A stretch of DNA of 64,000 nt, from positions 3,614-67,613 of the forward strand of contig CAYHBS010000004.1 of assembly GCA_964354975.1 (NCBI GenBank), given 5' to 3'. Source of the DNA: an uncultured Candidatus Saccharibacteria bacterium (GTDB lineage Bacteria > Patescibacteriota > Minisyncoccia > Ryanbacterales > HO2-45-13). The translations under genes were made by a program, and so were the position numbers. Of this stretch, positions 26,837-40,511 are shown piece by piece. The stretch's first letter is position 1. Each line of letters opens with the position of its first letter. The notes under the pieces are model-generated. The model was not told the origin of the DNA and did no database searches. It worked only from the letters and a program-made list of their open reading frames with translations.

Positions 26837-27283
26837 ACTCTATCATACACGCGCAGCGAATGATACTTTTCAAGATTCGAGAGAATATCACTCCGCTTTG
26901 CAAATCCCGACGCCTCGGTTGGGGCATGTGTTTTGCAAATCAAAAACCGCCATACTGCGGTTTTTGAGTAAAACTTCTGGCTGCCATGGGTGGGCGCTCA
27001 TTGGCACCGAATAATCAGGGACATCAATACGTTAAATGTTGCTAATACAGAATAGAGCAGCTCTTTTTTGTAAATTGGGTCTCCTGCTAGTGGAAGTTGG
27101 AACTGCGCTTTATAACACAACATCCCTACTGATGGATTTTTTTGATTTACGTGTCACTATTACCTAGCCAACGTTTATATGGGTTTCTGCGGGTAAAATC
27201 TCTCAGGAATATTCCGTAGCTTACATAACCTCTATCTTTATACTATGCTAAAAATGTGATGAAGCTTCAATACATAAGCTTGA

Positions 27284-28522
27284 ATGAATAAGAAAAAAAA
27301 GGTGATGATCTTCGTTGACGGAGAATTCATCCCATCCTACAGTGGGGCGACAAATAGATTTCACTATTTATCTGACGCCCTTCAACGATATACAAATACA
27401 GAAGTTGTTGTCGTTGTGTCCGACCGTGGTTGGACAGACACAAAGCTAATTAGAAAAGAGCGATTTAGGACATATTTGGTTCGCTCTGACTTATTTAAAA
27501 ACATTGACTTTCTGTTCCATCTAGTAAACAGGGAGCAACCTCAGATACTACAATTTGCTAACCTTGAGCTTGCCGTTCAACTAGGCATCCCCTTATCAGT
27601 AATGGGTGGTCAACACTTGGTGTATGAGGCGCATTATGATGATTTGGAATTCGCTAAATCTCTTGGTGCACCCAAAAAACAATTAGATAGCGTAAGGGGT
27701 TTAATGCATCACTTCGGCATTTATTTTGATAAGATTATTTCCCTCAGTAAGGATGACCACCTTGTTAAATCAAGATTTGGGGTTAGCGCGTCTCGCATCG
27801 CTATAGTGCCGAGCGGAATCAGACTAGATGACTTTCCACATAGTTGTTTTAAAGCGACCTCAAAAAAAATAATATTTCTAGGGAATTATTATTATGCCGT
27901 CAATTTAGCGGCTCTGAAACTGATTAGGAATTCTGTTTATCCAAAATTATCTGAGAAAGGATATATTTTTTATATTATTGGTGACATTCCATCCAAGATA
28001 AAGAAATCACTTGAGAAAAAAAACTTCGTAATCGTCGGCAAACAAAGTACGCTAAATACATACTTCAGTAATTCATTGTGCGCCCTTTCACCCGTTGCTG
28101 CTGGGTCCGGGATGAGAATTAAGATACTTGACTATTTGAATGCGGGGCTACCTGTCATCACAACCAGCCAGGGATCGCGGGGGTTCCTAAATAGAAACTT
28201 ATTGATGATTGAGGATGACATTAATAAGTTTTCCGAAATTATAGAGCTCATTGCAAGGTCAACTTTCACCTCTAGATTATTATCTGAGGCAGGCAGAAGG
28301 TTTGTTAGAAAACATATGTCCTGGAGTGTGGTCGCACAAAGCATGTCTGAAGAGTACGATAAAATTCTCCATAAAAGGAGGGTTACAAAGATCAATGCCC
28401 TGAATAGAATAAGTCAGCTAACTGCTCGTGATCCCGCGTGGCTTAAAGAAGTCATCAAAAAGGGGCGTTTTCAGGGAGCGAAACCCCATCTTTCGAAAAA
28501 ATCATATATAGTACTAAATTGA
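27284..28522 (+). CDS. Glycosyltransferase family 1/4 (GT-B fold)
   Basis: C-terminal GT1 signature (AAGSGMRIKILDYLNAGLPVITT). 412 aa. Confidence 0.8.
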   Translation: MNKKKKVMIFVDGEFIPSYSGATNRFHYLSDALQRYTNTEVVVVVSDRGWTDTKLIRKERFRTYLVRSDLFKNIDFLFHLVNREQPQILQFANLELAVQLGIPLSVMGGQHLVYEAHYDDLEFAKSLGAPKKQLDSVRGLMHHFGIYFDKIISLSKDDHLVKSRFGVSASRIAIVPSGIRLDDFPHSCFKATSKKIIFLGNYYYAVNLAALKLIRNSVYPKLSEKGYIFYIIGDIPSKIKKSLEKKNFVIVGKQSTLNTYFSNSLCALSPVAAGSGMRIKILDYLNAGLPVITTSQGSRGFLNRNLLMIEDDINKFSEIIELIARSTFTSRLLSEAGRRFVRKHMSWSVVAQSMSEEYDKILHKRRVTKINALNRISQLTARDPAWLKEVIKKGRFQGAKPHLSKKSYIVLN

Positions 28523-29109
28523 TGAAATCAATCATCGCCCTTGAAGGGCTCCCCTGCTCAGGGAAAACTGAATTTTTTGAGAAGTTCAAAACCAGTGGGG
28601 TGGAAATGTTTTTCATTCCTGAGCTCTACATGGATGCCCGCGACAAAGTGAATGCTAAAGATGCCCGAGCATTATATACTGAGGCTGAGAAGGATAAGTT
28701 TAAAAAAGTGCCTAAAAATGCACATACCATTTTGTGTGATCGATCATATATTTCAACACTCGGATTTTCCTATGCTTATGGGAAAACATTTTGGGAATAC
28801 AGCACATATGACTACAACACTAAGTTTTTTTCTACAAATCACGATGCAATCCTAGTCCCAACGCATGTTATTGTATTTCGAATACCACCCGAAGAAAGTT
28901 TGAGAAGAAGCACAGAGAAGGGCAGAACTGAAGACGTAGCATATTGGCAGAATATTCAGTTTCTGAGTAATTTTGCAGCCTTTTACGAGTCAGATTTATT
29001 AAAAACGCTTATTAAGAGTAAAATAATATTTGTAGACGCATTAAATATCCATCCTGAGCAAGTTTACGGTCAAGTCGATCAATCGATTAGACAATATATC
29101 AGGAAGTGA
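28519..29109 (+). CDS. P-loop nucleoside/nucleotide kinase, deoxynucleoside kinase/thymidylate kinase-like
   Basis: IALEGLPCSGKT P-loop, a DRS motif (LCDRSYIS) and an Arg-rich lid (LRRSTEKGRTED). Confidence 0.55.
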   Translation: MMKSIIALEGLPCSGKTEFFEKFKTSGVEMFFIPELYMDARDKVNAKDARALYTEAEKDKFKKVPKNAHTILCDRSYISTLGFSYAYGKTFWEYSTYDYNTKFFSTNHDAILVPTHVIVFRIPPEESLRRSTEKGRTEDVAYWQNIQFLSNFAAFYESDLLKTLIKSKIIFVDALNIHPEQVYGQVDQSIRQYIRK

Positions 29110-29137
29110 TTATTACGATGTGAGCGGGTCATAATAA

Positions 29138-29992
29138 GTGTGTAGTAAAAATATGGAATCATTTAAAATTGTCCGCCATCTCGAAGAGTCTCATCAAGAG
29201 GAGATTAATCGTGACGCCGATATAGACCCAGAAGAAATTGCATTGCTAAAGACTTACTACTTGCCTGCGATTTTAGAAAATATACGATCAGGAAAATATG
29301 ACAGTGCAACGGTAATCTGCAGCGACAAGTTGCGCTCAAGCCGGACTGCTGACATCCTTCGGGAAGAACTGCAGCGTTATGGAGATATCCCCGTCAATCA
29401 GGAAACTGACGATCGGATCTCTGCTGAAATCCATGGGCGATATAAAACTGGAACAAATTCTGATAATCCTTTAATTGAACGTGCTAAAATGATTTTTTTA
29501 CATGAGGCATTCGAAAAGCACAATGTTTGGTATAGACACGGATCCGCTAGTAATGATGCGGGTGAAATTCTGTATCCTGAGTTGAATGAAATATTTGAAT
29601 CCCCTGGGGAAAATCAAATTGAATTAAATATTCGCATGTATCGATTTGTTTTGGATTTACTCCAGAGGATTGAAGAAAATCCGACAAATCTCTTCATCTT
29701 ATCTGCTCATCATGTAGTGATGTCCACCTTACTTGCACTTCAGCGCATTTCCGAAAAAGGTGGGCCTTTTATTAACATCCGGTACCACCCTCAGGGCTTA
29801 TTGTATGCGGATCAAAATATGGAAACTGAGGAAATGATCGGGGGTTGGGATAATTTTTACGATTATTACAAATCTCGAAACTATATTTTTGATATTGATG
29901 TTCAAAAACTCAAACAGATAAGAGAGATAATCCAGGCTGAGCTGGATCTTTGCCTAGCGAGCTACACTCAACACTACGGAAATAGACTCTAG
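29138..29992 (+). CDS. Hypothetical protein, possible histidine-phosphatase (phosphoglycerate-mutase-like) fold
   Basis: N-terminal VRH and C-terminal LSAHHV motifs weakly resemble the RHG/SHG catalytic motifs. Confidence 0.3.
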   Translation: MCSKNMESFKIVRHLEESHQEEINRDADIDPEEIALLKTYYLPAILENIRSGKYDSATVICSDKLRSSRTADILREELQRYGDIPVNQETDDRISAEIHGRYKTGTNSDNPLIERAKMIFLHEAFEKHNVWYRHGSASNDAGEILYPELNEIFESPGENQIELNIRMYRFVLDLLQRIEENPTNLFILSAHHVVMSTLLALQRISEKGGPFINIRYHPQGLLYADQNMETEEMIGGWDNFYDYYKSRNYIFDIDVQKLKQIREIIQAELDLCLASYTQHYGNRL

Positions 29993-31665
29993 TCGTTTCC
30001 CTTAATGATCTCGGATTTGAGTAGTTTCCCATTGTAGATTAAACCCTTGGTATAATTTATTTTTTCGTAAAGACTTATCGTATCCTCGAGACTATTTGTC
30101 AGTGGCATGCCCTTAAAATTCAGCGATGTGTTGAGCAATAGTGCAATTCCGGTTTTATGGAAAAACAAACTGATTAAGTCACACAGAAATGGATTATCTT
30201 CCTTTGTGATAGTCTGAACTCGCGCACTCCCGTCTACATGTAGAGCCCCTGGTATTTTTGATTGAACTTCGCTCTTAACTTCATACTTGTAAAGCATAAA
30301 AGGAGATTTTGCAGGTCCAGTAAAGTATTCGTTTAACTTACTTTCCAGCACAATCGGAGCGAGCGGCCTGTAGGATTCGCGCTCTTTGATTCTCTCACTT
30401 AACAAGTCTCTTACTTTTTTACTATCCGGTCTTGCTATGAATGACCTGTTGCCTAGCGCACGTGGCCCTACTTCTGATCGTCCATTATGCACAAGTAATA
30501 TGCCATCAGACAGCAATATTTCGATGCATTTCTCAATTGTCTCCGATGAATATTCATATACATGCACCCCCTCGCCCAAGTAGGGAAAACGTGCACCTAT
30601 TCGTCCCCCTAAGACATTGTTTATCAAAATTGACAATGACCCAAGCGATTGACCTGAATCGTCGCAACAGGGCGCCACAAAGTGAATTTTGTCTTTATAA
30701 AATCCTGCGACGCGAGAATTAAGTTCGAGATTTAAACCCACTCCTCCAGACATAATAATTCCATCAACATTTTTTGCGTGTTGATCAATCACTGAAGAAA
30801 TGTCATCCATCTTGTGATTTACAAAGAATTCCTGGACAGTCGCTGCAAAATCTGTTGCTGAATTGGTTGGCCTTAGTGCTTGACCCTTTAATATCCTTAA
30901 TGGACTACTCTCAAAAATCTGGTAAATATCCTCGTACTTTGCAATTTCTATTTCTCGGTAAATCTGCTCCAAGACATCATAATACTCGACACGCACTTTA
31001 CCCAGTCCAGCTAGTGCCATCATTTTGCCATCTGGTGGATTGTGACTATGAAGCTCCGCTCCGTAAAGAAACATAGCACACGCGCCATAAGTTTTCCCGG
31101 AGATGTGCCCGGCTAAATCAATATTTAGCCTAGTTATAGAATTCCCTCTTCCTAAATAGTACGAGTTACACTCATTCATTTTTGTCAGTGGGTCCACGTC
31201 CCCACCACCATCAGAAGTGACAATAAGGACATTTTCAATTCCTGTGGTTAGATATATCCCCGCATGAGATAAGTGATGATTCGTAATCAAAACGTTACGC
31301 CTTAAACCAAAAAAATTAATTTCTTTCCAAAAGGCTGTCTTTAAGGTTTGCTCACCATAATCAATAATGTCTGCTTCCTGCAAAAAGGGATTGTTAAAGG
31401 TGGTCATAGACCAGTACTTCACACTTTCTATTGACTCTCCTAGTATATTGAGGCCGTATCTCACAAGGTATTCCATTTCATCCACAGCGCAAGCTTTTTT
31501 CTTTTCGCGAAACACTCTTTCAGCCTCTAATACCAAACAGATGTTTCTGCCAAACGCAAAAGATGCGGATGAGTCATGAAAATTAAACGAAATACTGCAG
31601 AACAACTCGCCGTCAATATTGGACGCGTGGGACAGTCCAAATTTTTCTGTACCGCTGTTATCCAA
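29989..31665 (-). CDS. Carbamoyltransferase (NodU/CmcH family)
   Basis: N-terminal LSHASNIDG...FHDSSAS and HLSHAGIY blocks typical of NodU/CmcH O-carbamoyltransferases. 558 aa. Confidence 0.8.
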   Translation of the reverse strand: MDNSGTEKFGLSHASNIDGELFCSISFNFHDSSASFAFGRNICLVLEAERVFREKKKACAVDEMEYLVRYGLNILGESIESVKYWSMTTFNNPFLQEADIIDYGEQTLKTAFWKEINFFGLRRNVLITNHHLSHAGIYLTTGIENVLIVTSDGGGDVDPLTKMNECNSYYLGRGNSITRLNIDLAGHISGKTYGACAMFLYGAELHSHNPPDGKMMALAGLGKVRVEYYDVLEQIYREIEIAKYEDIYQIFESSPLRILKGQALRPTNSATDFAATVQEFFVNHKMDDISSVIDQHAKNVDGIIMSGGVGLNLELNSRVAGFYKDKIHFVAPCCDDSGQSLGSLSILINNVLGGRIGARFPYLGEGVHVYEYSSETIEKCIEILLSDGILLVHNGRSEVGPRALGNRSFIARPDSKKVRDLLSERIKERESYRPLAPIVLESKLNEYFTGPAKSPFMLYKYEVKSEVQSKIPGALHVDGSARVQTITKEDNPFLCDLISLFFHKTGIALLLNTSLNFKGMPLTNSLEDTISLYEKINYTKGLIYNGKLLKSEIIKGND

Positions 31666-31688
31666 AAAAATATTTAATTGATCCTTTT

Positions 31689-32153
31689 TTAGCTCACGCC
31701 AATAAATGGATCCTCTGATTCAGCAAAAAACTTTATGTTCTCCCAGAACGTGTTCTTCAGCCTCTTTGGAAATACCTTCAAATCCTGCAAGTCGTCCTTT
31801 GTGAACCACTTTGCCTCTTCTACTGCCCCATTTGGATCAAGATCAATATGTGCTTCATTTAACGCTTGCTCATGAGACATTTTTGCCAACCAGAATGTTT
31901 CAAGACAAATATTTTCAATCTCTCCCTCGATACCGTGAAATTCTTGGAGATAAAGAAGTTTTAGTATTTCGACGTGCATGCCCGTCTCCTCAAGAACTTC
32001 TCGCTTCGCACATTCAACAATGTTTTCAATCTCATATTCCCAACTCCCCCCGGGGGCATACCAAAACTTAGTGCCCTTATTTCTAACTAGCAAAATCTTG
32101 TTCTCGTCAGGCTTGTAAGTTATAACACGAGCTATTGGTTTAATTTTCTTCAT
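31689..32153 (-). CDS. NUDIX hydrolase
   Basis: Nudix box GGSWEYEIENIVECAKREVLEETG. Confidence 0.8.
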   Translation of the reverse strand: MKKIKPIARVITYKPDENKILLVRNKGTKFWYAPGGSWEYEIENIVECAKREVLEETGMHVEILKLLYLQEFHGIEGEIENICLETFWLAKMSHEQALNEAHIDLDPNGAVEEAKWFTKDDLQDLKVFPKRLKNTFWENIKFFAESEDPFIGVS

Positions 32154-32310
32154 AATTAACGGCCGTGAAGCCTTAGTGATTAATATAGAAACTTATCTTC
32201 TTAGTATGCTATCTCAAATACATGCTTTCTGCATCTATTCTTGCTCAAAGAACGTTTGAGAATACATATTAGCTCGCTTCCCCAATGGATGGTAGAACTG
32301 CGATGAGCTC

Positions 32311-32352
32311 CACAATCAATAATAAAGAAATAGTCTCGCACATGCGAGGCTA
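32311..32352. repeat. Long near-perfect hairpin (aataaagaaatagtctcgca / tgcgagGctatttctttatt)
   Basis: About 20 bp stem with one bulge, immediately left of the direct-repeat copy. Confidence 0.5.
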
Positions 32353-32361
32353 TTTCTTTAT

Positions 32362-32383
32362 TTTGTTGCGGGACCGGGATTTG
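32362..32383. repeat. Direct repeat copy A, tttgttgcgggaccgggatttg (22 bp perfect, with about 50 bp of imperfect extension)
   Basis: Identical 22-mer at 37315-37336. Confidence 0.6.
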
Positions 32384-32553
32384 ATTGGAACCAAGTCTTC
32401 GGGCACATACGGGAAATCGCTATATTCAGTAAAGAAGTGCTCATGCCCGCGTGAAGGGGTGAGGGTGCAGATTTGACGGTATGGGTATTTAAAAAGAATG
32501 CTATTGATAGGCATATAGCATTCTCCTTTAAAGCTCTATCATTCAAATCGTGT

Positions 32554-32958
32554 TCACTGTGGGTATTTCCTGAAACAGTCTGATTTATTTTGCTGAAGCT
32601 GTGCGTCATTCTTATCATGCGCATCAGTAAATGCCGCCGCCCCCACACAGGTGCCACCGCCATCTACTTTACAATCTTCATACATTCCAACTAACTGTCT
32701 CCCCCATTCCTGCCAGTCAATTTCCGCGTTAGTTATGCAAGTATTCAATAATTGTTTAGCCTTCTCTTCAGTACGTGACTCCGTGAATGATTTATTAATT
32801 TGCTCCTGTCTTTCCTGCTCGATTTTTATTAGTTGCTGCTTTTCAATAGACCTTTGCTTGTTTACTTCACTTGCGAAGTAAAAACCGCCCAAAATAATAC
32901 TCGCGACAATAATCGTGACTGGTAATGACAGGTTATTAAATCTTGCGAAGATATCCAA
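32554..32958 (-). CDS. Secreted/membrane-anchored Cys-rich protein (DUF1311/LprI-like, tentative)
   Basis: N-terminal TM and a C-terminal domain with four Cys. Confidence 0.35.
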   Translation of the reverse strand: MDIFARFNNLSLPVTIIVASIILGGFYFASEVNKQRSIEKQQLIKIEQERQEQINKSFTESRTEEKAKQLLNTCITNAEIDWQEWGRQLVGMYEDCKVDGGGTCVGAAAFTDAHDKNDAQLQQNKSDCFRKYPQ

Positions 32959-32963
32959 ATTTT

Positions 32964-33950
32964 TTAGTTATCTTCAAATAAGCTCCCTGCAATCCAATCG
33001 TCGGTTCCGGTTGCTGTTCTGTTTAGTCCTCCACTGACCGTAGCGTGGGGTCCCCAGGATAAATTACCGTTCCCACCAGTTACTGATGAGCCTCCGCTAC
33101 GAGCTTCATTGAATACTCCGCCGCAAACGGCAGCAGAGCCCCCACTGGCAAGATTATCATTTCCTCCGGCAACCGACGCATAATCTGCGGTTGTTTTGTT
33201 TCTCAATCCTCCGCTAATAGTTGAGCTGTTTCCAATAACATTATTTCCTTCTCCGCCAGACACCGATGCATATACACCTGTAGTAGAATTATATCTTCCG
33301 GCTCCAATCCACGACATTAAACCATTGGCAGAATTTCTCCATCCGCCCGTGATAGAGGAAAGCTCTCCAACAGCGTGGTTTTCACTACCACCAACAATTG
33401 TTGAGTTCGCACCGACCAATTGGTTTTGTCGACCAGTAGTAAAGCCGCCATAGCTGATATATTCATGCTCCGGCCCAACAACAAGATTGTGCGAACCGTC
33501 TCGAGAAAATAGGCCGGTGCTTTGCTCATTGTAACCTATAATTAAGTTTCCTAAACCATTCTTTGTTGCCGTACTTCCAGCGCCATTTGTAAGGTGTATG
33601 TTGCATCCTTCAAAATACACATCATTACCATCAACTCTCACACAGGGGATGGATGTTCCGGCAATACCTTGTGGTCCTTGCTCTCCTTGTGAGCCCGCTT
33701 CACCTTGAGGGCCTTGCGCCCCTGTTGCCCCCTGAATATTCCAGACCACGAGCTTTTCTCCCTCTCTGCAAACCGTACGTCTAAAGCCGTCACCTATCAT
33801 CTGCATCGTTCCGTCTCTTTTTACACATGCAGCAAGAGTTTCTCCGCCCACTTGCCCATAAGTTTGAGCAGCAAACATGAGAATTAAGATAACAATACCC
33901 CCGGCAACAAATGAGGGCATATTGATTTGAGAATATTTTGAATAGTTCAT
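32964..33950 (-). CDS. Collagen-like triple-helix repeat protein with C-terminal SGG/NG-repeat beta-helix (phage tail-fibre-like)
   Basis: G-x-y run (GATGAQGPQGEAGSQGEQGPQGIAGT). Repeated xSGGxxN units. N-terminal signal/TM. Confidence 0.6.
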   Translation of the reverse strand: MNYSKYSQINMPSFVAGGIVILILMFAAQTYGQVGGETLAACVKRDGTMQMIGDGFRRTVCREGEKLVVWNIQGATGAQGPQGEAGSQGEQGPQGIAGTSIPCVRVDGNDVYFEGCNIHLTNGAGSTATKNGLGNLIIGYNEQSTGLFSRDGSHNLVVGPEHEYISYGGFTTGRQNQLVGANSTIVGGSENHAVGELSSITGGWRNSANGLMSWIGAGRYNSTTGVYASVSGGEGNNVIGNSSTISGGLRNKTTADYASVAGGNDNLASGGSAAVCGGVFNEARSGGSSVTGGNGNLSWGPHATVSGGLNRTATGTDDWIAGSLFEDN

Positions 33951-34607
33951 GATAGTTTTGATATTAACTAATAATTTTTGATAATTTTACCTCGGCAACA
34001 CAAAACCCACCGCTAGGCGATGGCTTGCGCCACCTACCACTCTTTCGAGCGGTAACCACTGCTGGTGCTCCTAAACGATGGGTTTAGTAGCCAGCAGTGG
34101 TTTTTTGCCATGCCACGAGAAAGGTTGTGGTTTAGGCACACAATACATGTATCTATTTAGTTGTACATCACAATCGTATACTTGCGCTACATACCTGTAA
34201 AGAGTGGGACTAATTGTTAAGCGTATTTATTTCCTCTTGATTATTGGACAAGATTATGCTAAGTTAAAAATAGAAAGTACTTAAGAAAATTATTTTTCCT
34301 GCACAAACGTTCTCGACTGTAATCTACGTATAGCTTGATGCACTCCGAGGGCCAAAGTGACAATATCCCTGAAATATGGGAGGCCATGTTTTCGGCCAGG
34401 CTTCAGTTCAATGCGTGTTATCACTTGGGGAACGATGGAAAAATTTATATTTTTGTGATTACTTGGCGAGATGAATTGACGGGCACCAATCGGTGATACC
34501 CGCGAATCGCGACTAGATGAGTATGTGCAATGCACTCATTTGTGAGGCGTTGCTTTGTTATTCGTCACATCCCGTCAGAGAGTCACAACGAAGCAACGGC
34601 ATCAGAA

Positions 34608-34877
34608 ATGGTGCCGTTATTCGTTTTTCTACTCCTCTTAATGCTCACAATTGCAGAATGTAAGGAAATATTGGGAGAGGATGTGTCATCAATATCTGAT
34701 GATGAAATTTTAGTTGTTCGTGATGCATTATATGCGCTGGCAGAGCTTGCTATAGATAAACAGTCGAATACTAACCACTTTGATTTTCATGCTGGTTTTG
34801 GGCAAAAGGACGGCATCCCCCCGCCCAAAACCGACATGAGAACCGGGAGATGCCATGACCCAAAACCAGGAGAATAA
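34608..34877 (+). CDS. Hypothetical exported or lipoprotein-like protein
   Basis: MVPLFVFLLLLMLTIAEC signal-like N-terminus. Start trimmed from the ORF at 34530. Confidence 0.3.
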   Translation: MVPLFVFLLLLMLTIAECKEILGEDVSSISDDEILVVRDALYALAELAIDKQSNTNHFDFHAGFGQKDGIPPPKTDMRTGRCHDPKPGE

Positions 34878-35394
34878 AAATTGCGCTAAAGCGATAAAAA
34901 TACCATATATTATGATTCCTACAGCAGTTGCAATGCGCAAAGATATTTCCCAAGGAGCGAAATTAACATACGGCATTATTTACACGCGACAGAATGGGAC
35001 GAAACCAGCCTACGCATCCCAAAAAAATATGGCTTTTCATATCGGCGTCTCTGAACGAACTATTCGAAAATATTTACGGGCATTAATAGCTCTGAATTTG
35101 ATATATCAGAAGCGCTTTGGACTAACGAGAACCAATAGATACTGGGTAAAGGACCGCACGAAACCGTCCTCTCATGATAGGAACTCTACTTCGGCTCTAC
35201 ATAGGTATGAACCTTCCGGTCATAGTAATAGTAAGGGAAATAGTAAAGCAGTAAGTCAGCTGCCCTTACATAAATCAGAAGGAACATGGAGGGAATACCG
35301 TATTCATAGACACCCTGATGGTAATATCAAGATTTGTGTTGACAGCGAATGGAAGATATTCGCGGGTGACGAACGCGACATTATATGGAAATAA
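34855..35394 (+). CDS. Winged-helix HTH protein (phage replication-organizer/DnaD-like N-terminal domain, tentative)
   Basis: IKIPYIMIPTAV...FHIGVSERTIRKYLRALIALNLI HTH pattern. Confidence 0.45.
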   Translation: MTQNQENKNCAKAIKIPYIMIPTAVAMRKDISQGAKLTYGIIYTRQNGTKPAYASQKNMAFHIGVSERTIRKYLRALIALNLIYQKRFGLTRTNRYWVKDRTKPSSHDRNSTSALHRYEPSGHSNSKGNSKAVSQLPLHKSEGTWREYRIHRHPDGNIKICVDSEWKIFAGDERDIIWK

Positions 35395-35786
35395 GAATGA
35401 GCAAGACACACATCGGGCCAGAAAACTCACAAAAAAAATCCCAACTTACAGTTAAACAGAAAGAGTGGGTTTCCGAAACCATTGCCACAAAAAATCCAAC
35501 GGAAGCCGCCTATCGAGCCTATGATGTTAAAGACCGACATAATGCATCAGTTATTGCTTCTGAAAACCTGTTAAAACCTTACTTACGAGAGGCATTAAAT
35601 GAAATGCTGGAAAACCATAATCTGCATTTAAATGACACCGTGCAAGAACATAAATGGCTCATCGCACAACGTGAGCATATTGCTACAAAGTTCGATGCAA
35701 TTAAAGAACACTACGAATTGCTCGGTCTACACACAAAGGACAGAGTCAATACAGGAATAAATATTGCATTAGTGGTCAGAAAATGA
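35385..35786 (+). CDS. Phage terminase small subunit-like protein
   Basis: LTVKQKEWVSETIATKNPTEAAYRAYDVKD resembles the TerS (Terminase_2) N-terminal helix pattern. Confidence 0.45.
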   Translation: MEIRMSKTHIGPENSQKKSQLTVKQKEWVSETIATKNPTEAAYRAYDVKDRHNASVIASENLLKPYLREALNEMLENHNLHLNDTVQEHKWLIAQREHIATKFDAIKEHYELLGLHTKDRVNTGINIALVVRK

Positions 35787-35811
35787 AACAGATGTAATGA
35801 TAAAATAATAT

Positions 35812-37404
35812 ATGCAGACTCCAAAAGGAATCATCTATTGCAGGGTGTCTTCTCAAGACCAGGTATCTGGGACTTCTTTAGATAGCCAACAAAAAGCATG
35901 TTTGGAATATGCAGAAACAAAAGGTATTAAAGTTGAGAAAATATTTGTCGAAAAAGGAGAGTCAGCCACTGCCGCAAATAGAGCGGAACTGATAAAAGCA
36001 TTGAACTTTTGTGGAGACAGAAAGGGTCAGATTTCGGCATTTATTGTTTGGAAGATTGATAGATTTGCGCGAAATACAACTGACCACTTTGGCTTACAGG
36101 CACAATTAATTAAATTTGGGACATCATTACATTCTGTTACCGAACCTATCGATAAAACTCCTATCGGAAAGATGATGGAAACCATGCTAGCCGGATATGC
36201 TCAGCTTGAAAATGATATTAGGCGGCAAAGATGCGAGGGGGGTATGCAGCGCAAAATTGCAGAAGGCATTCGACCGTGGAAACCACCACTGGGCTATGCC
36301 GTTCCACCAAAGACTGAGCGGAGGAAAACCAAGGCAGATGTGCGTGACCCCGAGCGTTTTCTGCTTGTACAAAAAACATTAAAGGCATATGCCACAGGGG
36401 CTTATTCCATAGCTAATTTAACCCAGGAAGCGACTAAACGGGGTCTTCGCACTCGTACTGGGAAGCCTATGCGCATTCAGCTTCTAGAGCGACTATTAAC
36501 AGATAAGTATTATGCGGGAATATTAACTGACCCCTGGACCAAGAAAGAGTACCCCGGACTACATGAACCAATGATAACCCTTGAGGAACACCAGCACATC
36601 CAACTCGTAAAATCTGGCCTATCCAACAATGCAATTAATACACGAACCTATGCTCATCCAGATTTTCCACTTCGAGGGCTTTTGATTTGTGTGTGTGGCG
36701 TGAAATTGACCGCTGGTTGGACGAAAGGAAGAAACAACAAATACCCCTATTATCACTGTAAACAAAAAGGATGCGTGCACTTTGGACATGCAATTCCTAA
36801 ACATAGGCTGGAGGAAAAGTTTCTTATTTTTCTCAAGCGCATTACCCCTCAGGAGCATTTCATAAAACTTTTTGAAACCATTGTGCTAGATGTATGGCGA
36901 AACAAACATCAATCACACACACAACAACGCATGCATTATGAAGCGGAAATCAAAAGATTAAATTCGCAACGAGAGCGATATATTGAAATGCGCGCAAATG
37001 GAGAGATTAACCGCGAGGAATTTAAAATCTATAGTGAACGCTTAGAAAACCAGATAACGGGTCTTACTATTTCGAGAAACGAAGAGAATATTGAAGAGTT
37101 AGACATGGGGACATTACTCTCCTATACAACACAATTCATGCGTAATTTATCTCGGCAGTGGCAGGATATGCAGGATATAAAACAAAAACAGCGGCTCCAG
37201 AAATTGGTTCTACCGGAAGGGATTATGTTTGATAAATCCACCGGAGAGCTTGGAACCGCTGTTTTGTCGCCTGTTTTCAGGATGAATCAGGTATTTGAGG
37301 ATGGCGAATCCGACTTTGTTGCGGGACCGGGATTTGCACCCGGGTCTGGAGGTTCGCACATTCCCAATATTTCTAATGGGGCTGGACTATACCATCTTCC
37401 ATAA
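35812..37404 (+). CDS. Large serine recombinase (resolvase/invertase N-terminal catalytic domain plus recombinase and zinc-ribbon/coiled-coil domains)
   Basis: YCRVSSQDQ catalytic Ser motif, DRFARN, recombinase domain and a Cys cluster. 530 aa. Confidence 0.9.
   Translation: MQTPKGIIYCRVSSQDQVSGTSLDSQQKACLEYAETKGIKVEKIFVEKGESATAANRAELIKALNFCGDRKGQISAFIVWKIDRFARNTTDHFGLQAQLIKFGTSLHSVTEPIDKTPIGKMMETMLAGYAQLENDIRRQRCEGGMQRKIAEGIRPWKPPLGYAVPPKTERRKTKADVRDPERFLLVQKTLKAYATGAYSIANLTQEATKRGLRTRTGKPMRIQLLERLLTDKYYAGILTDPWTKKEYPGLHEPMITLEEHQHIQLVKSGLSNNAINTRTYAHPDFPLRGLLICVCGVKLTAGWTKGRNNKYPYYHCKQKGCVHFGHAIPKHRLEEKFLIFLKRITPQEHFIKLFETIVLDVWRNKHQSHTQQRMHYEAEIKRLNSQRERYIEMRANGEINREEFKIYSERLENQITGLTISRNEENIEELDMGTLLSYTTQFMRNLSRQWQDMQDIKQKQRLQKLVLPEGIMFDKSTGELGTAVLSPVFRMNQVFEDGESDFVAGPGFAPGSGGSHIPNISNGAGLYHLP
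37315..37336. repeat. Direct repeat copy B, tttgttgcgggaccgggatttg, inside the 3' end of the serine recombinase gene
   Basis: Identical to 32362-32383. Confidence 0.6.
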
Positions 37405-37733
37405 TTGGAAGTCCTCATTATAGTCTCTGAACCTTTCCTATCTATCAGATAAGACTTGGCTGCTGATTGTCGAATCTCTGTTTTTTTTTGCCATCACGCC
37501 CACTCTTTCGAATCACGTTGTGGCAAACAAAGCTCTCACGAGTTTCCAGCAGTTTCGAAGATTTTTCCGTCGCACATTACTGAGCGAGGTCACAATTATT
37601 TATGAGCCTCCCGAGGTACTACTCCTCTATCCCGCGGCTTACAGATTACCACAATATTACAACTGTGACAATCTTGGCACATACAAAATAACTGTGAATA
37701 TTATCGAACCAACGATATGATATAATATATATT

Positions 37734-38438
37734 ATGGCTAAAACACTGGCGCGCTCACGTGCAATACAATTACGCATAGAAGGAAAAAGTGTCAAGGAAA
37801 TTGCGCGATTGTTACAGGTTTCTACAAGCTCCGTAAGTATCTGGTGCCGCGACATTCAACTCTCATCTACTCAGTCTGAATTCCTTCGGTTAAGGCAAAT
37901 TGCATCAGGTTTCAGGGGTCGCCAAATCGGTGCCGACGTAAATAGAAAGAAGAAGCAATTGCGCATCGAAAAAGCACGCATTTACGCAGCAACGCTGTGG
38001 AAACAACATGGAGATGATCCTCTGTTTTTATTGGGCATTGGCTTGTATTGGGGGGAGGGAAGCAAAACTGATAAGTTGAGTTTTTCCAATTCGGATCCTG
38101 CTATGGTGCGATTTATGATGCTTTGGTTACAAAAATACCTCGGCGTATCGAAAAGTGATTTTGTCGCACGCGTCTATATAAACAATATTCACCATAAGCG
38201 CGCTACGGTGGTTCAACAATATTGGATACACTATCTCACATTGCCGGAAAGACAATTTCGATCTACGTGCTATATTTATTCAGTCCCTAAAAAACGGTAC
38301 GACAATCATGATATATATTTTGGTATACTTGCATTACGTGTTCGCCGTAGTACAGTATTGAAATATATTGTGCTAGCATTGCTCGCACGAGTAAAGGATG
38401 TCGGGGTAGCTCAGTTGGTTAGAGCGGAGCACTCATAA
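37734..38438 (+). CDS. HTH plus single-motif LAGLIDADG-like endonuclease (tentative)
   Basis: N-terminal HTH (GKSVKEIARLLQVSTSSVSIWCR). LLGIGLYWGEGSK resembles the LAGLIDADG motif. The 3' end overlaps the tRNA. Confidence 0.4.
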   Translation: MAKTLARSRAIQLRIEGKSVKEIARLLQVSTSSVSIWCRDIQLSSTQSEFLRLRQIASGFRGRQIGADVNRKKKQLRIEKARIYAATLWKQHGDDPLFLLGIGLYWGEGSKTDKLSFSNSDPAMVRFMMLWLQKYLGVSKSDFVARVYINNIHHKRATVVQQYWIHYLTLPERQFRSTCYIYSVPKKRYDNHDIYFGILALRVRRSTVLKYIVLALLARVKDVGVAQLVRAEHS

Positions 38439-38473
38439 AGCTCAGGTCGGCAGTTCGATCCTGCCCCCCGGCA
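38400..38473 (+). tRNA. tRNA with CAT anticodon (Met, or Ile2 if modified)
   Basis: Manual fold: acceptor gtcgggg/ccccggc, D-arm gctc-agttggtta-gagc, anticodon loop ctCATaa, T-arm ggcag-ttcgatc-ctgcc, discriminator A. One A-A mispair at 31-39. No encoded CCA. Confidence 0.75.
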
Positions 38474-38501
38474 CAAGTATAAAAAAGCCATTTGGCGTTT
38501 T

Positions 38502-39050
38502 TTATTTGCACGAAACAGCAAATTCCTTCAGACGTTCCCCCACAAGCACTGCATCCGCCTCAGAATGCACGTCATCGATTGACCCAATTAAACTCGCTTG
38601 GCACATCCAACCGGAAAATATACTTCTCGCTTCGGCAAAAGATTCCTTTTTTCTTTTGCCCGTTTGTAAATCACGACTGTTCCAAACTGCACGAACCTGT
38701 GCCGGCAAATCCGCTAGCTCCTGAATGGTATTGGGTTCGATGAGGCACTTTTCAATGTGCGTACTCGGTACTCTTCCCACCACCAGCACCCAGTCCGCTC
38801 CTGCCGCGAGTGCTCGCTCAATATCTCCGTCACTCGCGTGAATTCCCTTTGCGAGAATTGGTTTGTTGGTCATCGTGCATGCTTTTTTAATGAGATCAAA
38901 AGATCCGCCCCACCGCGGGTCGGTATGAATTGAGATCATATCTCCCACGCGATTTGCCACCGCAAAAAGTTCGTCCCATGTGTGCGCTGACCTAAATCCA
39001 AATGGAGACTGCGTTTTGACTTCAGCAATGATTTTAATTCCATGATACAT
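38502..39050 (-). CDS. trpC: Indole-3-glycerol-phosphate synthase-like protein (compact, 182 aa)
   Basis: IIAEVKTQSPFGF (IAEVKxxSPSxG signature), ILAKGIHASD and DAVLVGERL blocks. Confidence 0.55.
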   Translation of the reverse strand: MYHGIKIIAEVKTQSPFGFRSAHTWDELFAVANRVGDMISIHTDPRWGGSFDLIKKACTMTNKPILAKGIHASDGDIERALAAGADWVLVVGRVPSTHIEKCLIEPNTIQELADLPAQVRAVWNSRDLQTGKRKKESFAEARSIFSGWMCQASLIGSIDDVHSEADAVLVGERLKEFAVSCK

Positions 39051-39087
39051 ATGTCCATGGTACCAACGGACCGAAAGAAGTGAAAAC

Positions 39088-39261
39088 TTATCTTAAGCTC
39101 CTTTTGTGTTCTTCAATTTCTTTATCGAGCCTCTCTCGTTGCTGTTGCATTTCCTTTAACTTAGCTTCCTTCTCTTTTTTTTGCGCTTCCTGGGCTTCTC
39201 TAAGCCGCCTTTCCGCCTCGGCTACTTTTTTCGCCGAATCAGTCGATGTATCTTTTTCCAT
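39088..39261 (-). CDS. Small coiled-coil protein (57 aa), hypothetical
   Basis: Manual minus-strand translation MEKDTSTDSAKKVAEAERRLREAQEAQKKEKEAKLKEMQQQRERLDKEIEEHKRSLR. Below the ORF-track cutoff. Confidence 0.25.
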   Translation of the reverse strand: MEKDTSTDSAKKVAEAERRLREAQEAQKKEKEAKLKEMQQQRERLDKEIEEHKRSLR

Positions 39262-39329
39262 ACGATATGAATTAATTATACGGATAATATTTTTGCAACC
39301 TTATATATAGTATAACAAATAGTGAACAT

Positions 39330-39363
39330 GTGAAGTGCATATCCCATGGGATATGCACTTCAC
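39330..39363. repeat. Perfect palindrome gtgaagtgcatatccc-atg-gggatatgcacttcac (16 bp arms)
   Basis: Self-complementary. No flanking T-run. Confidence 0.5.
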
Positions 39364-39577
39364 GCCAAAGCTACGAATTTACCAGAAACATAAATTTGTT
39401 GCGCACAACCTTTTGTTTTGGAGTAAGCCGCTCGACGAGATAGACACTTATTGGGATGACTCTATCACCCACGCTGAATGAATAATTCTCTTTTTTTGTA
39501 ATGTGTGAACGATATCTCTCGCCACACCACTTCTCCCATATACGGTTAGTGAAATAACCTATCAGTGCGATATAATA

Positions 39578-40270
39578 ATGGGTATGCGAATCCGCACTCA
39601 TCGGGTCGTGAACAAAGACTTCTTTAAAGAGTGGGCCGCTCCGATGGCATATGTGCTTGGATTTTTCATGGCGGATGGATACATGACACATAATTCCCGA
39701 GGCGCACACTTTCTCTGTATGCAAATTACTGACAGGAATCTGCTATACAAGCTCCGCGCCGCAATGCGATCCACGCACAAAGTGAGCGCGAGAACCACGC
39801 ACGACGCCGGGAAACCACTGTACCGATTACAAATCGGCAGCAAAGAAATGTGTGATGATTTGCGCAAACTCGGCATCAGAAATGGGAAAACGCACAATAT
39901 GCGCTTACCAAATGTACCACAAAAATATGTTTCGGATTTTGTTCGCGGGTACTTTGATGGAGACGGAAACGTTTGGGTTGGACTTGTCCACAAGGAGCGT
40001 CAACGATCATTACTTGCTATCAACACCGTATTCACTTCGTGCTCCGGACATTTTCTGCGCGTCCTCAAAAAAACGCTGAAAGAGTATGAAATCCACGGCC
40101 ATATGAGCAACGCAAACTCGTACTGTAGGCTCTCCTACAGCATTCATGCGTCGCTAAAGTTACACGGATTGATGTATGGAAAGTATCATGGTAATCTGTT
40201 CCTGCGCCGAAAACGAAAAGTATTTGAGCGATATGTTCGAAACCGAAATGCGGCTGTAGCTCAACGGTAG
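39578..40270 (+). CDS. LAGLIDADG family homing endonuclease (double-motif)
   Basis: Motif 1 YVLGFFMADGYM and motif 2 VRGYFDGDGNVWV. A -10-like gatataat lies upstream. The 3' end overlaps the tRNA-Asp. Confidence 0.8.
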   Translation: MGMRIRTHRVVNKDFFKEWAAPMAYVLGFFMADGYMTHNSRGAHFLCMQITDRNLLYKLRAAMRSTHKVSARTTHDAGKPLYRLQIGSKEMCDDLRKLGIRNGKTHNMRLPNVPQKYVSDFVRGYFDGDGNVWVGLVHKERQRSLLAINTVFTSCSGHFLRVLKKTLKEYEIHGHMSNANSYCRLSYSIHASLKLHGLMYGKYHGNLFLRRKRKVFERYVRNRNAAVAQR

Positions 40271-40321
40271 AGCGCTCGCCTGTCACGTGAGAGGTCGTGG
40301 GGTCAGCACCCATCAGCCGCG
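40250..40321 (+). tRNA. tRNA-Asp(GTC)-like with non-canonical T-loop (GTCAGCA)
   Basis: Perfect 7 bp acceptor gcggctg/cagccgc, canonical D-arm tagctcaacggtagagc, anticodon loop ctGTCac. The T-stem needs a G-U pair and the T-loop lacks T54/A58. Confidence 0.5.
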
Positions 40322-40490
40322 CAGTATAAAAAAACCGCCGAAGGGCGCGTTTTTTTGTTTTGCGGTAGAGGAAGTGATCTGCATCACTTCCGTATGGGTG
40401 CTGACGGACGGAGCTGTGTATTAACACCAGTTAAAACCAGCGAGTCGGGGTAGCGAACATTTCGAGCGAGTGCGAGAAATGATTCGTGAC

Positions 40491-40511
40491 CAGCACCCAT
40501 CAGCCGCGCCA
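40491..40511 (+). repeat. Duplicated tRNA-Asp 3' end (cagcacccatcagccgcgc plus CA completing CCA), direct repeat of 40304-40322
   Basis: 19 bp perfect copy with imperfect extension back to tcgtg. Only this copy encodes CCA. Confidence 0.55.

Follow-up and report, generated by a model that had tools for sequence, protein, structure and literature searches.

Why should two neighboring genes in a bacterial genome of the candidate phyla radiation (CPR) each end inside a tRNA gene? Both lie in a 64,000-nt stretch from an uncultured Candidatus Saccharibacteria bacterium (GenBank assembly GCA_964354975.1, contig CAYHBS010000004.1, positions 3,614 to 67,613), hereafter called the window. Two plus-strand open reading frames (ORFs), ORF1 and ORF2, run there into the 5′ ends of a tRNA(CAU) and a tRNA-Asp gene, respectively. 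A reading made from the letters alone (the sequence-only reading) had taken both for LAGLIDADG-type genes, suggesting free-standing endonucleases that target tRNA genes or, alternatively, a phage-type module of tRNAs and homing-endonuclease genes. Its coordinates and overlaps proved exact (39 nt for ORF1 and 21 nt for ORF2), and both tRNAs were accepted by ARAGORN and Rfam; across the whole window, ARAGORN called exactly two uninterrupted tRNAs, tRNA-Met(cat) and tRNA-Asp(gtc), both on the plus strand. A third tRNA, an intron-split initiator on the minus strand, was absent from that reading. On balance we consider it probable, judging from comparisons of sequences, that ORF1 and ORF2 are free-standing homing-endonuclease-type genes in pre-tRNA leader positions, with collaborative homing, in which a free-standing endonuclease cooperates with an ORF-less intron, most likely for ORF2. 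The features concerned are listed below.

37318 to 37636, minus strand: initiator-type tRNA(CAU) split by a group I intron (Rfam, and ARAGORN on the spliced sequence); 5′ exon 37636 to 37602, intron 37601 to 37355 (247 nt), 3′ exon 37354 to 37318.
37721 to 37726, plus strand: TATAAT, a −10-like box read from the sequence, 7 nt 5′ of the ORF1 ATG.
37734 to 38438, plus strand: ORF1, 234 aa, with an N-terminal helix-turn-helix (HTH), then a long helix, and at the C terminus a domain containing GLYWGEGSK...NSDP; its final 13 codons are tRNA encoded.
38400 to 38474, plus strand: tRNA(CAU) of elongator Met or Ile2 type, with a G1-C72 pair (ARAGORN; Rfam, 59.9 bits); its first 39 nt lie within ORF1.
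39544 to 39576, plus strand: ORF2 promoter region with a 23-bp motif like tRNA-Asp, GGTTAG-tgaaataa-CCTATCAG (39544 to 39565), followed by TATAAT (39571 to 39576).
39578 to 40270, plus strand: ORF2, a double-motif LAGLIDADG endonuclease gene, 230 aa; the last 7 codons are tRNA encoded.
40250 to 40322, plus strand: intronless tRNA-Asp(GUC) of the short D-loop type (CGGTAG-N8-CCTGTCAC) (ARAGORN; Rfam, 57.4 bits); its first 21 nt lie within ORF2.

ORF2 and its junction with tRNA-Asp

ORF2 is unambiguously a double-motif LAGLIDADG protein, as the sequence-only reading had it, and site-specific cleavage is predicted for it. The protein matched the Pfam model LAGLIDADG_3 (E value, 2e-10; 41.2 bits against a cutoff of 22.5 bits) and PHROG 4645, "endonuclease" (3.4e-38), and a profile of its family matched the PDB entries of I-Tsp061I across both domains (3.6e-5) and of I-HjeMI (4.3e-4). 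Its two motifs read LGFFMADGY and RGYFDGDGN, and the aspartates in them, D33 and D129, were invariant in 30 homologues. An identical protein bears the NCBI name "LAGLIDADG family homing endonuclease," and the source given for identical proteins is "Patescibacteria group bacterium." The true start is likely the ATG at 39584, which would yield 228 aa.

The ORF2 family comprises more than 2,390 proteins, all from Patescibacteria, with relatives in at least 503 species-representative genomes; sources include Kaiser-, Nomura-, Wolfe-, Ryan-, and Pacebacteria and related groups. The best 120 homologues are 50 to 59% identical to ORF2 and about 225 aa long, and most of their C termini are tRNA encoded. 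We compared loci from metagenome-assembled genomes, with a sample of 80 ORF2 genome loci in which the tRNA-Asp could be resolved in 76. The neighbor of the ORF2 homologue was tRNA-Asp(GTC) in all 76 resolved loci, and in 66 of them the stop codon lay inside the tRNA, as in the window, where ORF2 stops at the TAG of the tRNA-Asp D-loop. This stop was a TAG at tRNA positions 8 to 10 in 42 of the 66. The family C terminus ..KMR(S/L/P/A)-stop corresponds to AAA ATG CGG NNG TAG, the tRNA starting at the G of ATG, and the ending ..NAAVAQR-stop is the same DNA in a different frame. The usual cluster at these loci is tRNA-Met, tRNA-Met, ORF, tRNA-Asp, tRNA-Thr, tRNA-Thr.

Could the overlaps be incidental, arising in a compact genome where ORFs run to the first stop and are connected with the tRNAs neither in function nor in evolution? 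ORF1 provides two points in favor. The tRNA-encoded tail of its AlphaFold2 model (residues 226 to 234) is predicted to be disordered, with a predicted local distance difference test (pLDDT) score below 50 in a model that reaches 90.9, and tRNA(CAT) is overlapped in 9 of about 28 ORF1 loci, most others stopping 5 to 58 nt short of it. Set against these are the ORF2 homologues, which adjoin tRNA-Asp in every resolved locus and enter it in 66 of 76, the tRNA-encoded tails shared by homologues of other genomes at 40 to 59% identity, and the tight association (see below) among ORF presence, intron presence, and tRNA sequence type. The family-wide statistics already contradict incidental overlap, to which we give hardly any credence. 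On these counts, the junction of ORF2 with tRNA-Asp is a family-wide property and not chance.

Two further observations concern the tRNA at this junction. The window tRNA-Asp and about 17 related loci have the T-loop GTCAGCA instead of the near-universal TTCRANY, together with the short D-loop (CAACGGTAG). In L022, L029, and L046, the ORF2 homologue ends in a partial copy of the tRNA-Asp 5′ end (TGCGRYYGTAGCT..), the real tRNA following 60 to 100 nt on, and in L022 the unit occurs several times over. These arrangements resemble traces left by recombination that was imprecise at the junction.

Introns, allelic states, and a candidate recognition site

ARAGORN saw no tRNA-Asp in 33 of the 76 ORF2-bearing loci because the gene is split by an intron. 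The intron lies between U35 and C36, is ORF-less, and measures 203 to 260 nt, which leaves no room for an ORF; the splice junctions read ..CCUGU / ...G / CACG.., and ARAGORN called all 33 spliced products tRNA-Asp. The Rfam gathering score was reached by three of these introns (L013, 82.2 bits; L015, 52.5 bits; L039, 51.9 bits), and the remaining ones were identified from the common core, position, and exons only. From the end of the ORF2-family gene to the intron site, the distance is 25 nt. The group I introns at this locus are presumably self-splicing. The sequence-only reading had pointed to self-splicing introns that encode LAGLIDADG enzymes within CPR rRNA genes; group I introns are indeed involved here, but they are ORF-less and sit in tRNA anticodon loops.

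A second sample, selected by the tRNA and independent of ORF2, came from a metagenome scan for a 28-nt pattern derived from the 5′ portion of the window-type tRNA-Asp; the scan returned 120 loci, from which tRNA-Asn false matches and duplicates were then removed. Loci with a full ORF2 included 14 with the intron and 12 without, and those retaining an ORF2 remnant (the last 40 to 50 codons) included 9 with and 2 without. Where ORF2 was missing, 2 loci had the intron and 47 did not. An intron was thus present in 23 of 37 alleles with ORF2 or its remnant versus 2 of 49 without (odds ratio, 38.6; P = 2.4e-9), with loci treated as independent here and in the site and ORF1 comparisons below, although independent events are fewer than loci. 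Retention of the intron in 9 of 11 remnant alleles is what would be expected late in a homing cycle.

Homologous tRNA loci without an endonuclease gene, which the sequence-only reading had proposed to look for, exist at both sites: ORF2 is missing from 49 loci, and the spacing between tRNA-fMet and tRNA-Met is about 80 nt without ORF1 and about 800 nt with it. In alleles empty of ORF2, the tRNA-Met ends 47 to 57 nt 5′ of tRNA-Asp, and a TTGAAA-N17-TATAAT promoter lies about 8 nt before tRNA +1. Internal stops mark 4 of the 80 ORF2 genome loci as pseudogenes. In one close pair of loci, L104 has a LAGLIDADG ORF and the intron, and L084 is intronless, with a GIY-YIG ORF (Pfam, 8.7e-11) in the same spot; homology between the two loci sets in at tRNA position −4, and their downstream flanks share 96% identity. 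The GIY-YIG ORF extends from about 305 nt 5′ of tRNA-Asp to +10, ending at the TAG at tRNA positions 8 to 10, and the leader slot has therefore been reused by unrelated nuclease families. With presence or absence at a fixed site, pseudogenes, and deletion remnants, both ORFs behave as free-standing, tRNA-associated homing-endonuclease genes. Polymorphism and decay together would correspond to the homing-endonuclease life cycle of gain, fixation, decay, and loss, in which the intron would move with the nuclease gene.

The ORF2-deleted loci L093, L106/L125, L120, and L150 have a conserved promoter block (CTTTGAAATTATACGATTTTATGTATAAT) that leads directly into the final ∼20 codons of ORF2, with tRNA-Asp coming next. 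Most of the nuclease gene seems to have given way to a promoter cassette in them.

The predicted ORF2 promoter of the window is GTGAAA-16-TATAAT (39549 to 39576; 10 of 12 matches). Searching up to 200 nt 5′ of ORF2 homologues with at most 2 mismatches, we found GGTTAG-N8-CCTGTCAC(G), then ..TATAAT and the start codon 6 to 12 nt on, in 43 of 80 ORF2 loci versus 0 of 281 control windows. In sequence and in spacing, the two blocks of this motif equal the D-loop and anticodon loop of canonical tRNA-Asp (GGTTAG AGCACCCG CCTGTCACG). Outside both anchor blocks, promoter region and tRNA are alike at 13 of 48 positions, which is chance level. We rejected the possibility that the upstream motif is the neutrally decayed 5′ half of a disrupted tRNA-Asp because of this random similarity, and the motif is therefore either a selected copy of the site or a very old vestige. 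The candidate recognition site spans 23 bp and includes the intron insertion point, CCTGT/CACG. LAGLIDADG targets are of about this length.

Site sequence and intron status were associated among the ORF2-bearing loci. Exons exactly of the type GGTTAG-N8-CCTGTCAC were intron bearing in 21 loci and intronless in 3, and exon variants (an extra T, GGTTAA, GGCTAA, CTTGTCAC, and others) were intron bearing in 2 and intronless in 32 (canonical versus variant, P = 1.3e-10). This pattern fits an enzyme that recognizes the canonical string, so that a site survives only if it is split or mutated. The short GGTAG exon type, that of the window, whose D-loop is one base shorter, was found with the intron in 9 loci and without it in 8. 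The proposal that all intronless ORF2-bearing alleles have resistant exon variants was discarded; it holds for the canonical class and fails for the short D-loop class.

The same associations bear on a different route, by which ORF2 would have entered the spacer between tRNA-Met and tRNA-Asp, or the tRNA 5′ end, by "intronless homing," with the intron as a passenger through co-conversion and its site not the target. Such a route would suit the intronless ORF2-bearing alleles that share their mature tRNA with intron-bearing ones, the breakpoint of allele homology at tRNA position −4, and the conserved tRNAs on either side, which could give repair homology. It leaves unexplained why 21 of 24 exons of the promoter-motif type are intron bearing and 32 of 34 variants intronless, and why the D-loop/anticodon-loop string is kept over the promoter, and we regard it as quite unlikely.

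It is also conceivable that ORF1 and ORF2 are domesticated LAGLIDADG-type factors, namely maturases for the tRNA group I introns or DNA-binding proteins that regulate the tRNA cluster, comparable to WhiA, a LAGLIDADG-derived transcription factor. A host function would agree with the approximately 50 invariant columns of ORF2 and its occurrence in at least 503 species genomes, with an intron that is almost never found without ORF2 or its remnant, with the conserved tRNA-like motif placed over the ORF2 promoter like the operator of a regulator, and with the HTH domain of ORF1. Yet in nine intron-bearing alleles ORF2 is reduced to the 40-to-50-codon remnant, and the intron therefore persists without the protein; more than half of the ORF2-bearing loci have an intronless tRNA-Asp, and 49 related loci have no ORF2 at all. 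The remnant-only intron alleles and the many loci without ORF and intron argue against an obligatory host function. Furthermore, both catalytic aspartates are invariant, an unrelated GIY-YIG gene occupies the same spot in L084, and a maturase does not predict a link between site sequence and intron. Domestication thus appears unlikely to us, and we continue with homing endonucleases as the preferred reading.

ORF1, the initiator tRNA, and the surrounding genes

The intron-split initiator tRNA is transcribed divergently from ORF1, which starts 98 nt from its 5′ end. Rfam Intron_gpI matched 37363 to 37611 on the minus strand with 76.6 bits (E = 2.7e-18), which reaches the gathering score. The splice junctions (..CUCAU / A...GCG / AACCUCC) show a U before the 5′ site and a G at the intron end, and ARAGORN called the spliced product tRNA-Met(cat), 72 nt long, with the C1:A72 mismatch typical of bacterial initiators. 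In the window itself, then, a free-standing gene adjoins a tRNA-fMet carrying an ORF-less intron. Among related loci, a strict initiator-tRNA regular expression had found too few cases, and introns were scored by a scan for the group I core motif, which was present in the upstream divergent tRNA in 13 of 23 loci with ORF1 versus 5 of 108 without it (P = 2e-8). By this association, the tRNA-fMet intron goes with ORF1 in the way that the tRNA-Asp intron goes with ORF2; the statistical partner of ORF1 is not the downstream tRNA-Met.

In L045, L034, L137, L150, and others, the initiator tRNA 5′ of the ORF1 homologue apparently has its intron at ..GGCU/CGACAUAAUGG.., compared with ..CUCAU/AAAUAA.. 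in the window. At least two intron types seem to occupy the initiator tRNA.

The ORF1 family consists of 74 proteins from CPR bacteria and occurs sporadically, at a constant site between the initiator tRNA (usually divergent) and a downstream tRNA(CAT). ORF1 has no stop before the TAA at 38436 to 38438, which belongs to the tRNA anticodon loop CTCATAA, and several homologues of 40 to 47% identity also have tRNA-encoded tails (e.g., ..GVAQLVRASHS). The −10-like box so near the ATG suggests a promoter and a leaderless or near-leaderless mRNA, and TATAAT-like boxes recur at equal distance in the loci of ORF1 homologues. The N terminus matched HTH_23 (Pfam, 3.2e-7). The GLYWGEGSK...NSDP motif is nearly invariant in the family, and at least 90% of the sequences keep the residues E108, G109, and K111 within GIGLYWGEGSK. 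A family profile gave a single match, over 68 residues, to the second LAGLIDADG motif and the next helix of I-DmoI (E = 6.6e-5), the matching segment being GLYWGEGSK..NSDP..W..LGV. ORF1 is possibly an HTH protein with a divergent single LAGLIDADG domain.

Several observations weigh against reading both genes as homing endonucleases, and most of those on ORF1 concern its fold. Pfam LAGLIDADG models matched 0 of 31 ORF1 family members (HTH models alone did), hhalign comparison of ORF1 with the ORF2 domains gave a probability of at most 0.5%, two Foldseek searches, with two confident AlphaFold models (pLDDT, 91), returned no LAGLIDADG structure, and the alpha-beta-beta-alpha-beta-beta-alpha fold was not found in ORF1. 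Searched for tRNA-like or target-like motifs, the region 5′ of ORF1 showed TATAAT boxes only. A nuclease fold for ORF1 is therefore weakly supported and not established. The sequence-only reading was largely correct about free-standing endonucleases at tRNA genes; the LAGLIDADG nature of ORF1 is its weak part.

On the side of ORF2, short-type alleles with an identical mature tRNA occur with the intron (L039 and L054) and without it (L017). Since short D-loop loci bearing ORF2 are found in both states, the window, with ORF2 and no intron, is unexplained unless GGTAG is resistant or the enzymes are weak or inactive, and it represents the least well explained configuration. Moreover, ORF2 lies 5′ of the whole tRNA and not inside the proposed site, which the downstream tRNA keeps intact. 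With a mean column identity of 56% in addition to its invariant columns, ORF2 is better conserved than is usual for a gene that is purely selfish, which leaves room for a host-beneficial role, and the smaller number of independent events behind the locus counts belongs here as well.

The surrounding genes were compared with those of a relative, L001, whose ORF1 and ORF2 homologues are 69% and 73% identical to those of the window and whose initiator tRNA is likewise intron split and on the minus strand. The order in L001 is split tRNA, ORF1 homologue into tRNA-Met, a gene like that of indole-3-glycerol-phosphate synthase, ORF2 homologue into tRNA-Asp, gatA, gatC, and ligA. A 10.3-kb stretch of the window is missing from L001 and is therefore an integrated element. 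Its features, and one repeat downstream of tRNA-Asp, are as follows.

26985 to 37317: integrated element, 10.3 kb, of lower GC content, inserted exactly at the initiator tRNA 3′ end.
34019 to 34138, minus strand: LOOT RNA motif (Rfam, 87.3 bits; gathering score, 46.4), within the element.
35385 to 35786: small terminase-like gene, within the element.
35812 to 37404: large serine recombinase, within the element, its ORF running antisense into the initiator tRNA.
40491 to 40509, plus strand: exact 19-nt copy of the tRNA-Asp 3′ end, from a repeat search, 168 nt downstream of tRNA-Asp.

The 10.3-kb segment, which also encodes an HTH_36 protein, is probably an integrated phage-like or mobile element, and it is unrelated to ORF1 and ORF2. 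One might nevertheless suppose that the two ORFs are cargo of a tRNA-targeting phage or integrative element, either as a phage-type module or as part of this island, given that the tRNA-fMet 3′ end borders on an element that has a large serine recombinase and a small terminase-like gene, that ORF2 matches a PHROG endonuclease family, and that 19 nt of the tRNA-Asp 3′ end are duplicated downstream. But L001 lacks the island, which ends at 37317, and keeps both ORFs and all three tRNAs in equal order; the flanks in the window are the housekeeping genes gatA, gatC, and ligA; and the 3′-end duplicate occurs in just 5 of 51 ORF2-bearing loci. Viral relatives of ORF2 are at most 39% identical to it, and any tRNA lies within 1.5 kb in 2 of 80, which rules out the phage-type module of the sequence-only reading. 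Cargo of either kind is, in our judgment, very improbable.

Duplicates of the tRNA 3′ end were also seen in L002, L020, L023, L055, and L077, at 150 to 330 nt, and two recurring sequence types (..TGATTCGTGRC and ..CATGTAATG..) precede them. A cassette that brought a whole tRNA-Asp and split the resident gene, with 40491 to 40509 as the 3′ relic, was considered and rejected on the low frequency given above; the duplicate therefore looks like a separate small insertion. It suggests an element, small in size, whose insertion point is the T-loop or 3′ end of tRNA-Asp, and it probably does not belong to the endonuclease cassette.

Between the two ORF-tRNA pairs, a 182-aa ORF on the minus strand (38502 to 39050), conserved in L001, matches part of indole-3-glycerol-phosphate synthase (TrpC; profile positions 48 to 144 of 254) and is either a truncated or a repurposed TIM-barrel fragment. 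A perfect palindrome of 17 + 17 nt (GTGAAGTGCATATCCCA/TGGGATATGCACTTCAC; 39330 to 39363), which separates a small minus-strand ORF from the ORF2 promoter, could serve as a bidirectional terminator or as a site where a protein binds.

A proposed mechanism and its relation to known systems

We built the proposed mechanism on the observed gene-tRNA fusions, the polymorphism and decay, the linkage of ORF and intron, the tRNA-like promoter motif, and the association of site type with intron. Both genes would be lodged in the very short 5′ leaders of a conserved Patescibacteria tRNA cluster (tRNA-fMet, tRNA-Met, tRNA-Asp, and tRNA-Thr). The −10 box, 6 to 7 nt before the ATG, suggests a leaderless mRNA. 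Since each ORF has this box just ahead of its ATG but lacks a stop codon, its translation would end at the stop triplet supplied by the tRNA. The tRNA probably comes from the same transcript, so that the ORF would be a translated pre-tRNA leader, and RNase P cleavage at tRNA +1 would leave a stop-less mRNA. Because no separate tRNA promoter would be left, expression of tRNA-Asp would depend on the nuclease promoter.

ORF2 would pair with tRNA-Asp, with its intron between U35 and C36, and ORF1 with the divergent initiator tRNA. We infer that ORF2 recognizes about 23 bp of the tRNA-Asp gene, from D-loop to anticodon loop (GGTTAG-N8-CCTGTCACG), and cuts uninterrupted alleles. Donor-templated repair would then copy the nuclease gene together with the intron 25 nt away, with the flanking conserved tRNAs as homology. 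By splitting the site the intron would confer protection, and alleles could also escape by mutation of the site. The copy of the site over the nuclease promoter may be a vestige of invasion or an operator for autoregulation or autorepression.

A wider proposal, which we offer tentatively as possible rather than probable, is that of a phylum-wide, three-part selfish system at one Patescibacteria tRNA cluster, whose parts include a leader-encoded LAGLIDADG nuclease and a target-mimic operator. The endonuclease would be encoded by the 5′ leader of an essential pre-tRNA, a leader that would itself be translated as a leaderless mRNA. Because the stop codon lies within the tRNA, processing by RNase P would remove it from the mRNA, which would hold down the dosage of the nuclease, and the host would be unable to silence the nuclease promoter without losing tRNA-Asp. 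The target-mimic operator over the promoter would serve autoregulation, and the D-loop/anticodon-loop sequence of tRNA-Asp would be in an arms race with the nuclease. Unrelated nucleases would make use of the same leader slot, a GIY-YIG gene next to tRNA-Asp and the ORF1 family with its HTH next to tRNA-Met.

Only a couple of phage systems are known to have free-standing endonucleases working together with ORF-less introns, and these endonucleases are taken to show the birth of mobile introns. The same logic would here apply to cellular chromosomes and essential tRNA genes in at least 500 species of a major uncultivated phylum, with examples of each stage: an empty site, a nuclease by itself, a nuclease with the intron, a decayed nuclease with the intron, and variants in which the target has escaped. 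The locus supplies a candidate recognition site for a new LAGLIDADG specificity and offers a reason why CPR tRNA-Asp and tRNA-fMet genes are so often intron split and escape tRNA finders. Annotation pipelines, and work on tRNA processing in reduced genomes, should also allow for the unusual case of a pre-tRNA leader that encodes a protein and has its stop within the tRNA.

The I-Ssp6803I system resembles that of the window in having group I introns in tRNA anticodon loops and a nuclease aimed (here presumably) at the tRNA anticodon region. It differs in that the introns here are ORF-less and the nuclease gene lies outside them, 5′ of the tRNA; the I-Ssp6803I family is of the PD-(D/E)XK type, unlike that of ORF2, and the tRNA-fMet intron of the window follows CAU (position 5) instead of occupying the classical position 2. 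I-TevI represses its own expression through an operator that mimics its homing site, and here, too, a copy of the presumed target overlaps the nuclease's own promoter. I-Tsp061I and I-DmoI are archaeal monomeric LAGLIDADG enzymes with solved structures; ORF2 matches the former across both domains, whereas ORF1, unlike I-DmoI, has one motif, an N-terminal HTH, a 48-residue helix, and a predicted topology without a LAGLIDADG match in Foldseek.

The ORF2 promoter motif as a vestige of an invaded site would be in line with the "endonuclease-gene invasion" described for I-TevII (PMC3984707). LAGLIDADG endonucleases are encoded inside CPR rRNA introns (PMC8172020); they share with the present system the phylum, the enzyme superfamily, and group I introns in structural RNA genes, but their ORFs lie inside 16S/23S introns, whereas those described here are free-standing beside tRNAs whose introns are ORF-less. 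Group I introns that interrupt tRNA genes of CPR genomes have been mentioned in passing (PMC8172020), and 21 types of tRNA intron in bacteria have been listed (bioRxiv 10.1101/2020.01.27.920355). In the literature searched, we found no description of LAGLIDADG-tRNA-Asp units or of nuclease genes fused to these tRNAs, and the system is to that extent undescribed.

In collaborative (trans) homing, free-standing F-CphI lies beside the intron-containing psbA of cyanophage S-PM2, and mobE of T4 accompanies the I-TevIII-defective nrdB intron (PMC3984707; PMC2790892; PMC6083498). As with F-CphI and mobE, the nuclease gene here is outside an ORF-less intron and adjoins the intron-containing gene, gene and intron co-occur, and the intron site falls within the presumed nuclease site, so that the intron would protect the host allele. 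Whereas those systems belong to phages, protein genes, and EndoVII-like or HNH enzymes, the present one involves CPR chromosomes, tRNA genes, and LAGLIDADG proteins whose cleavage is predicted; its ORF overlaps the target gene and uses the stop codon of that gene, in an arrangement found in hundreds of species. The window would thus exemplify a widespread system in which a form of collaborative homing acts on CPR tRNA genes.

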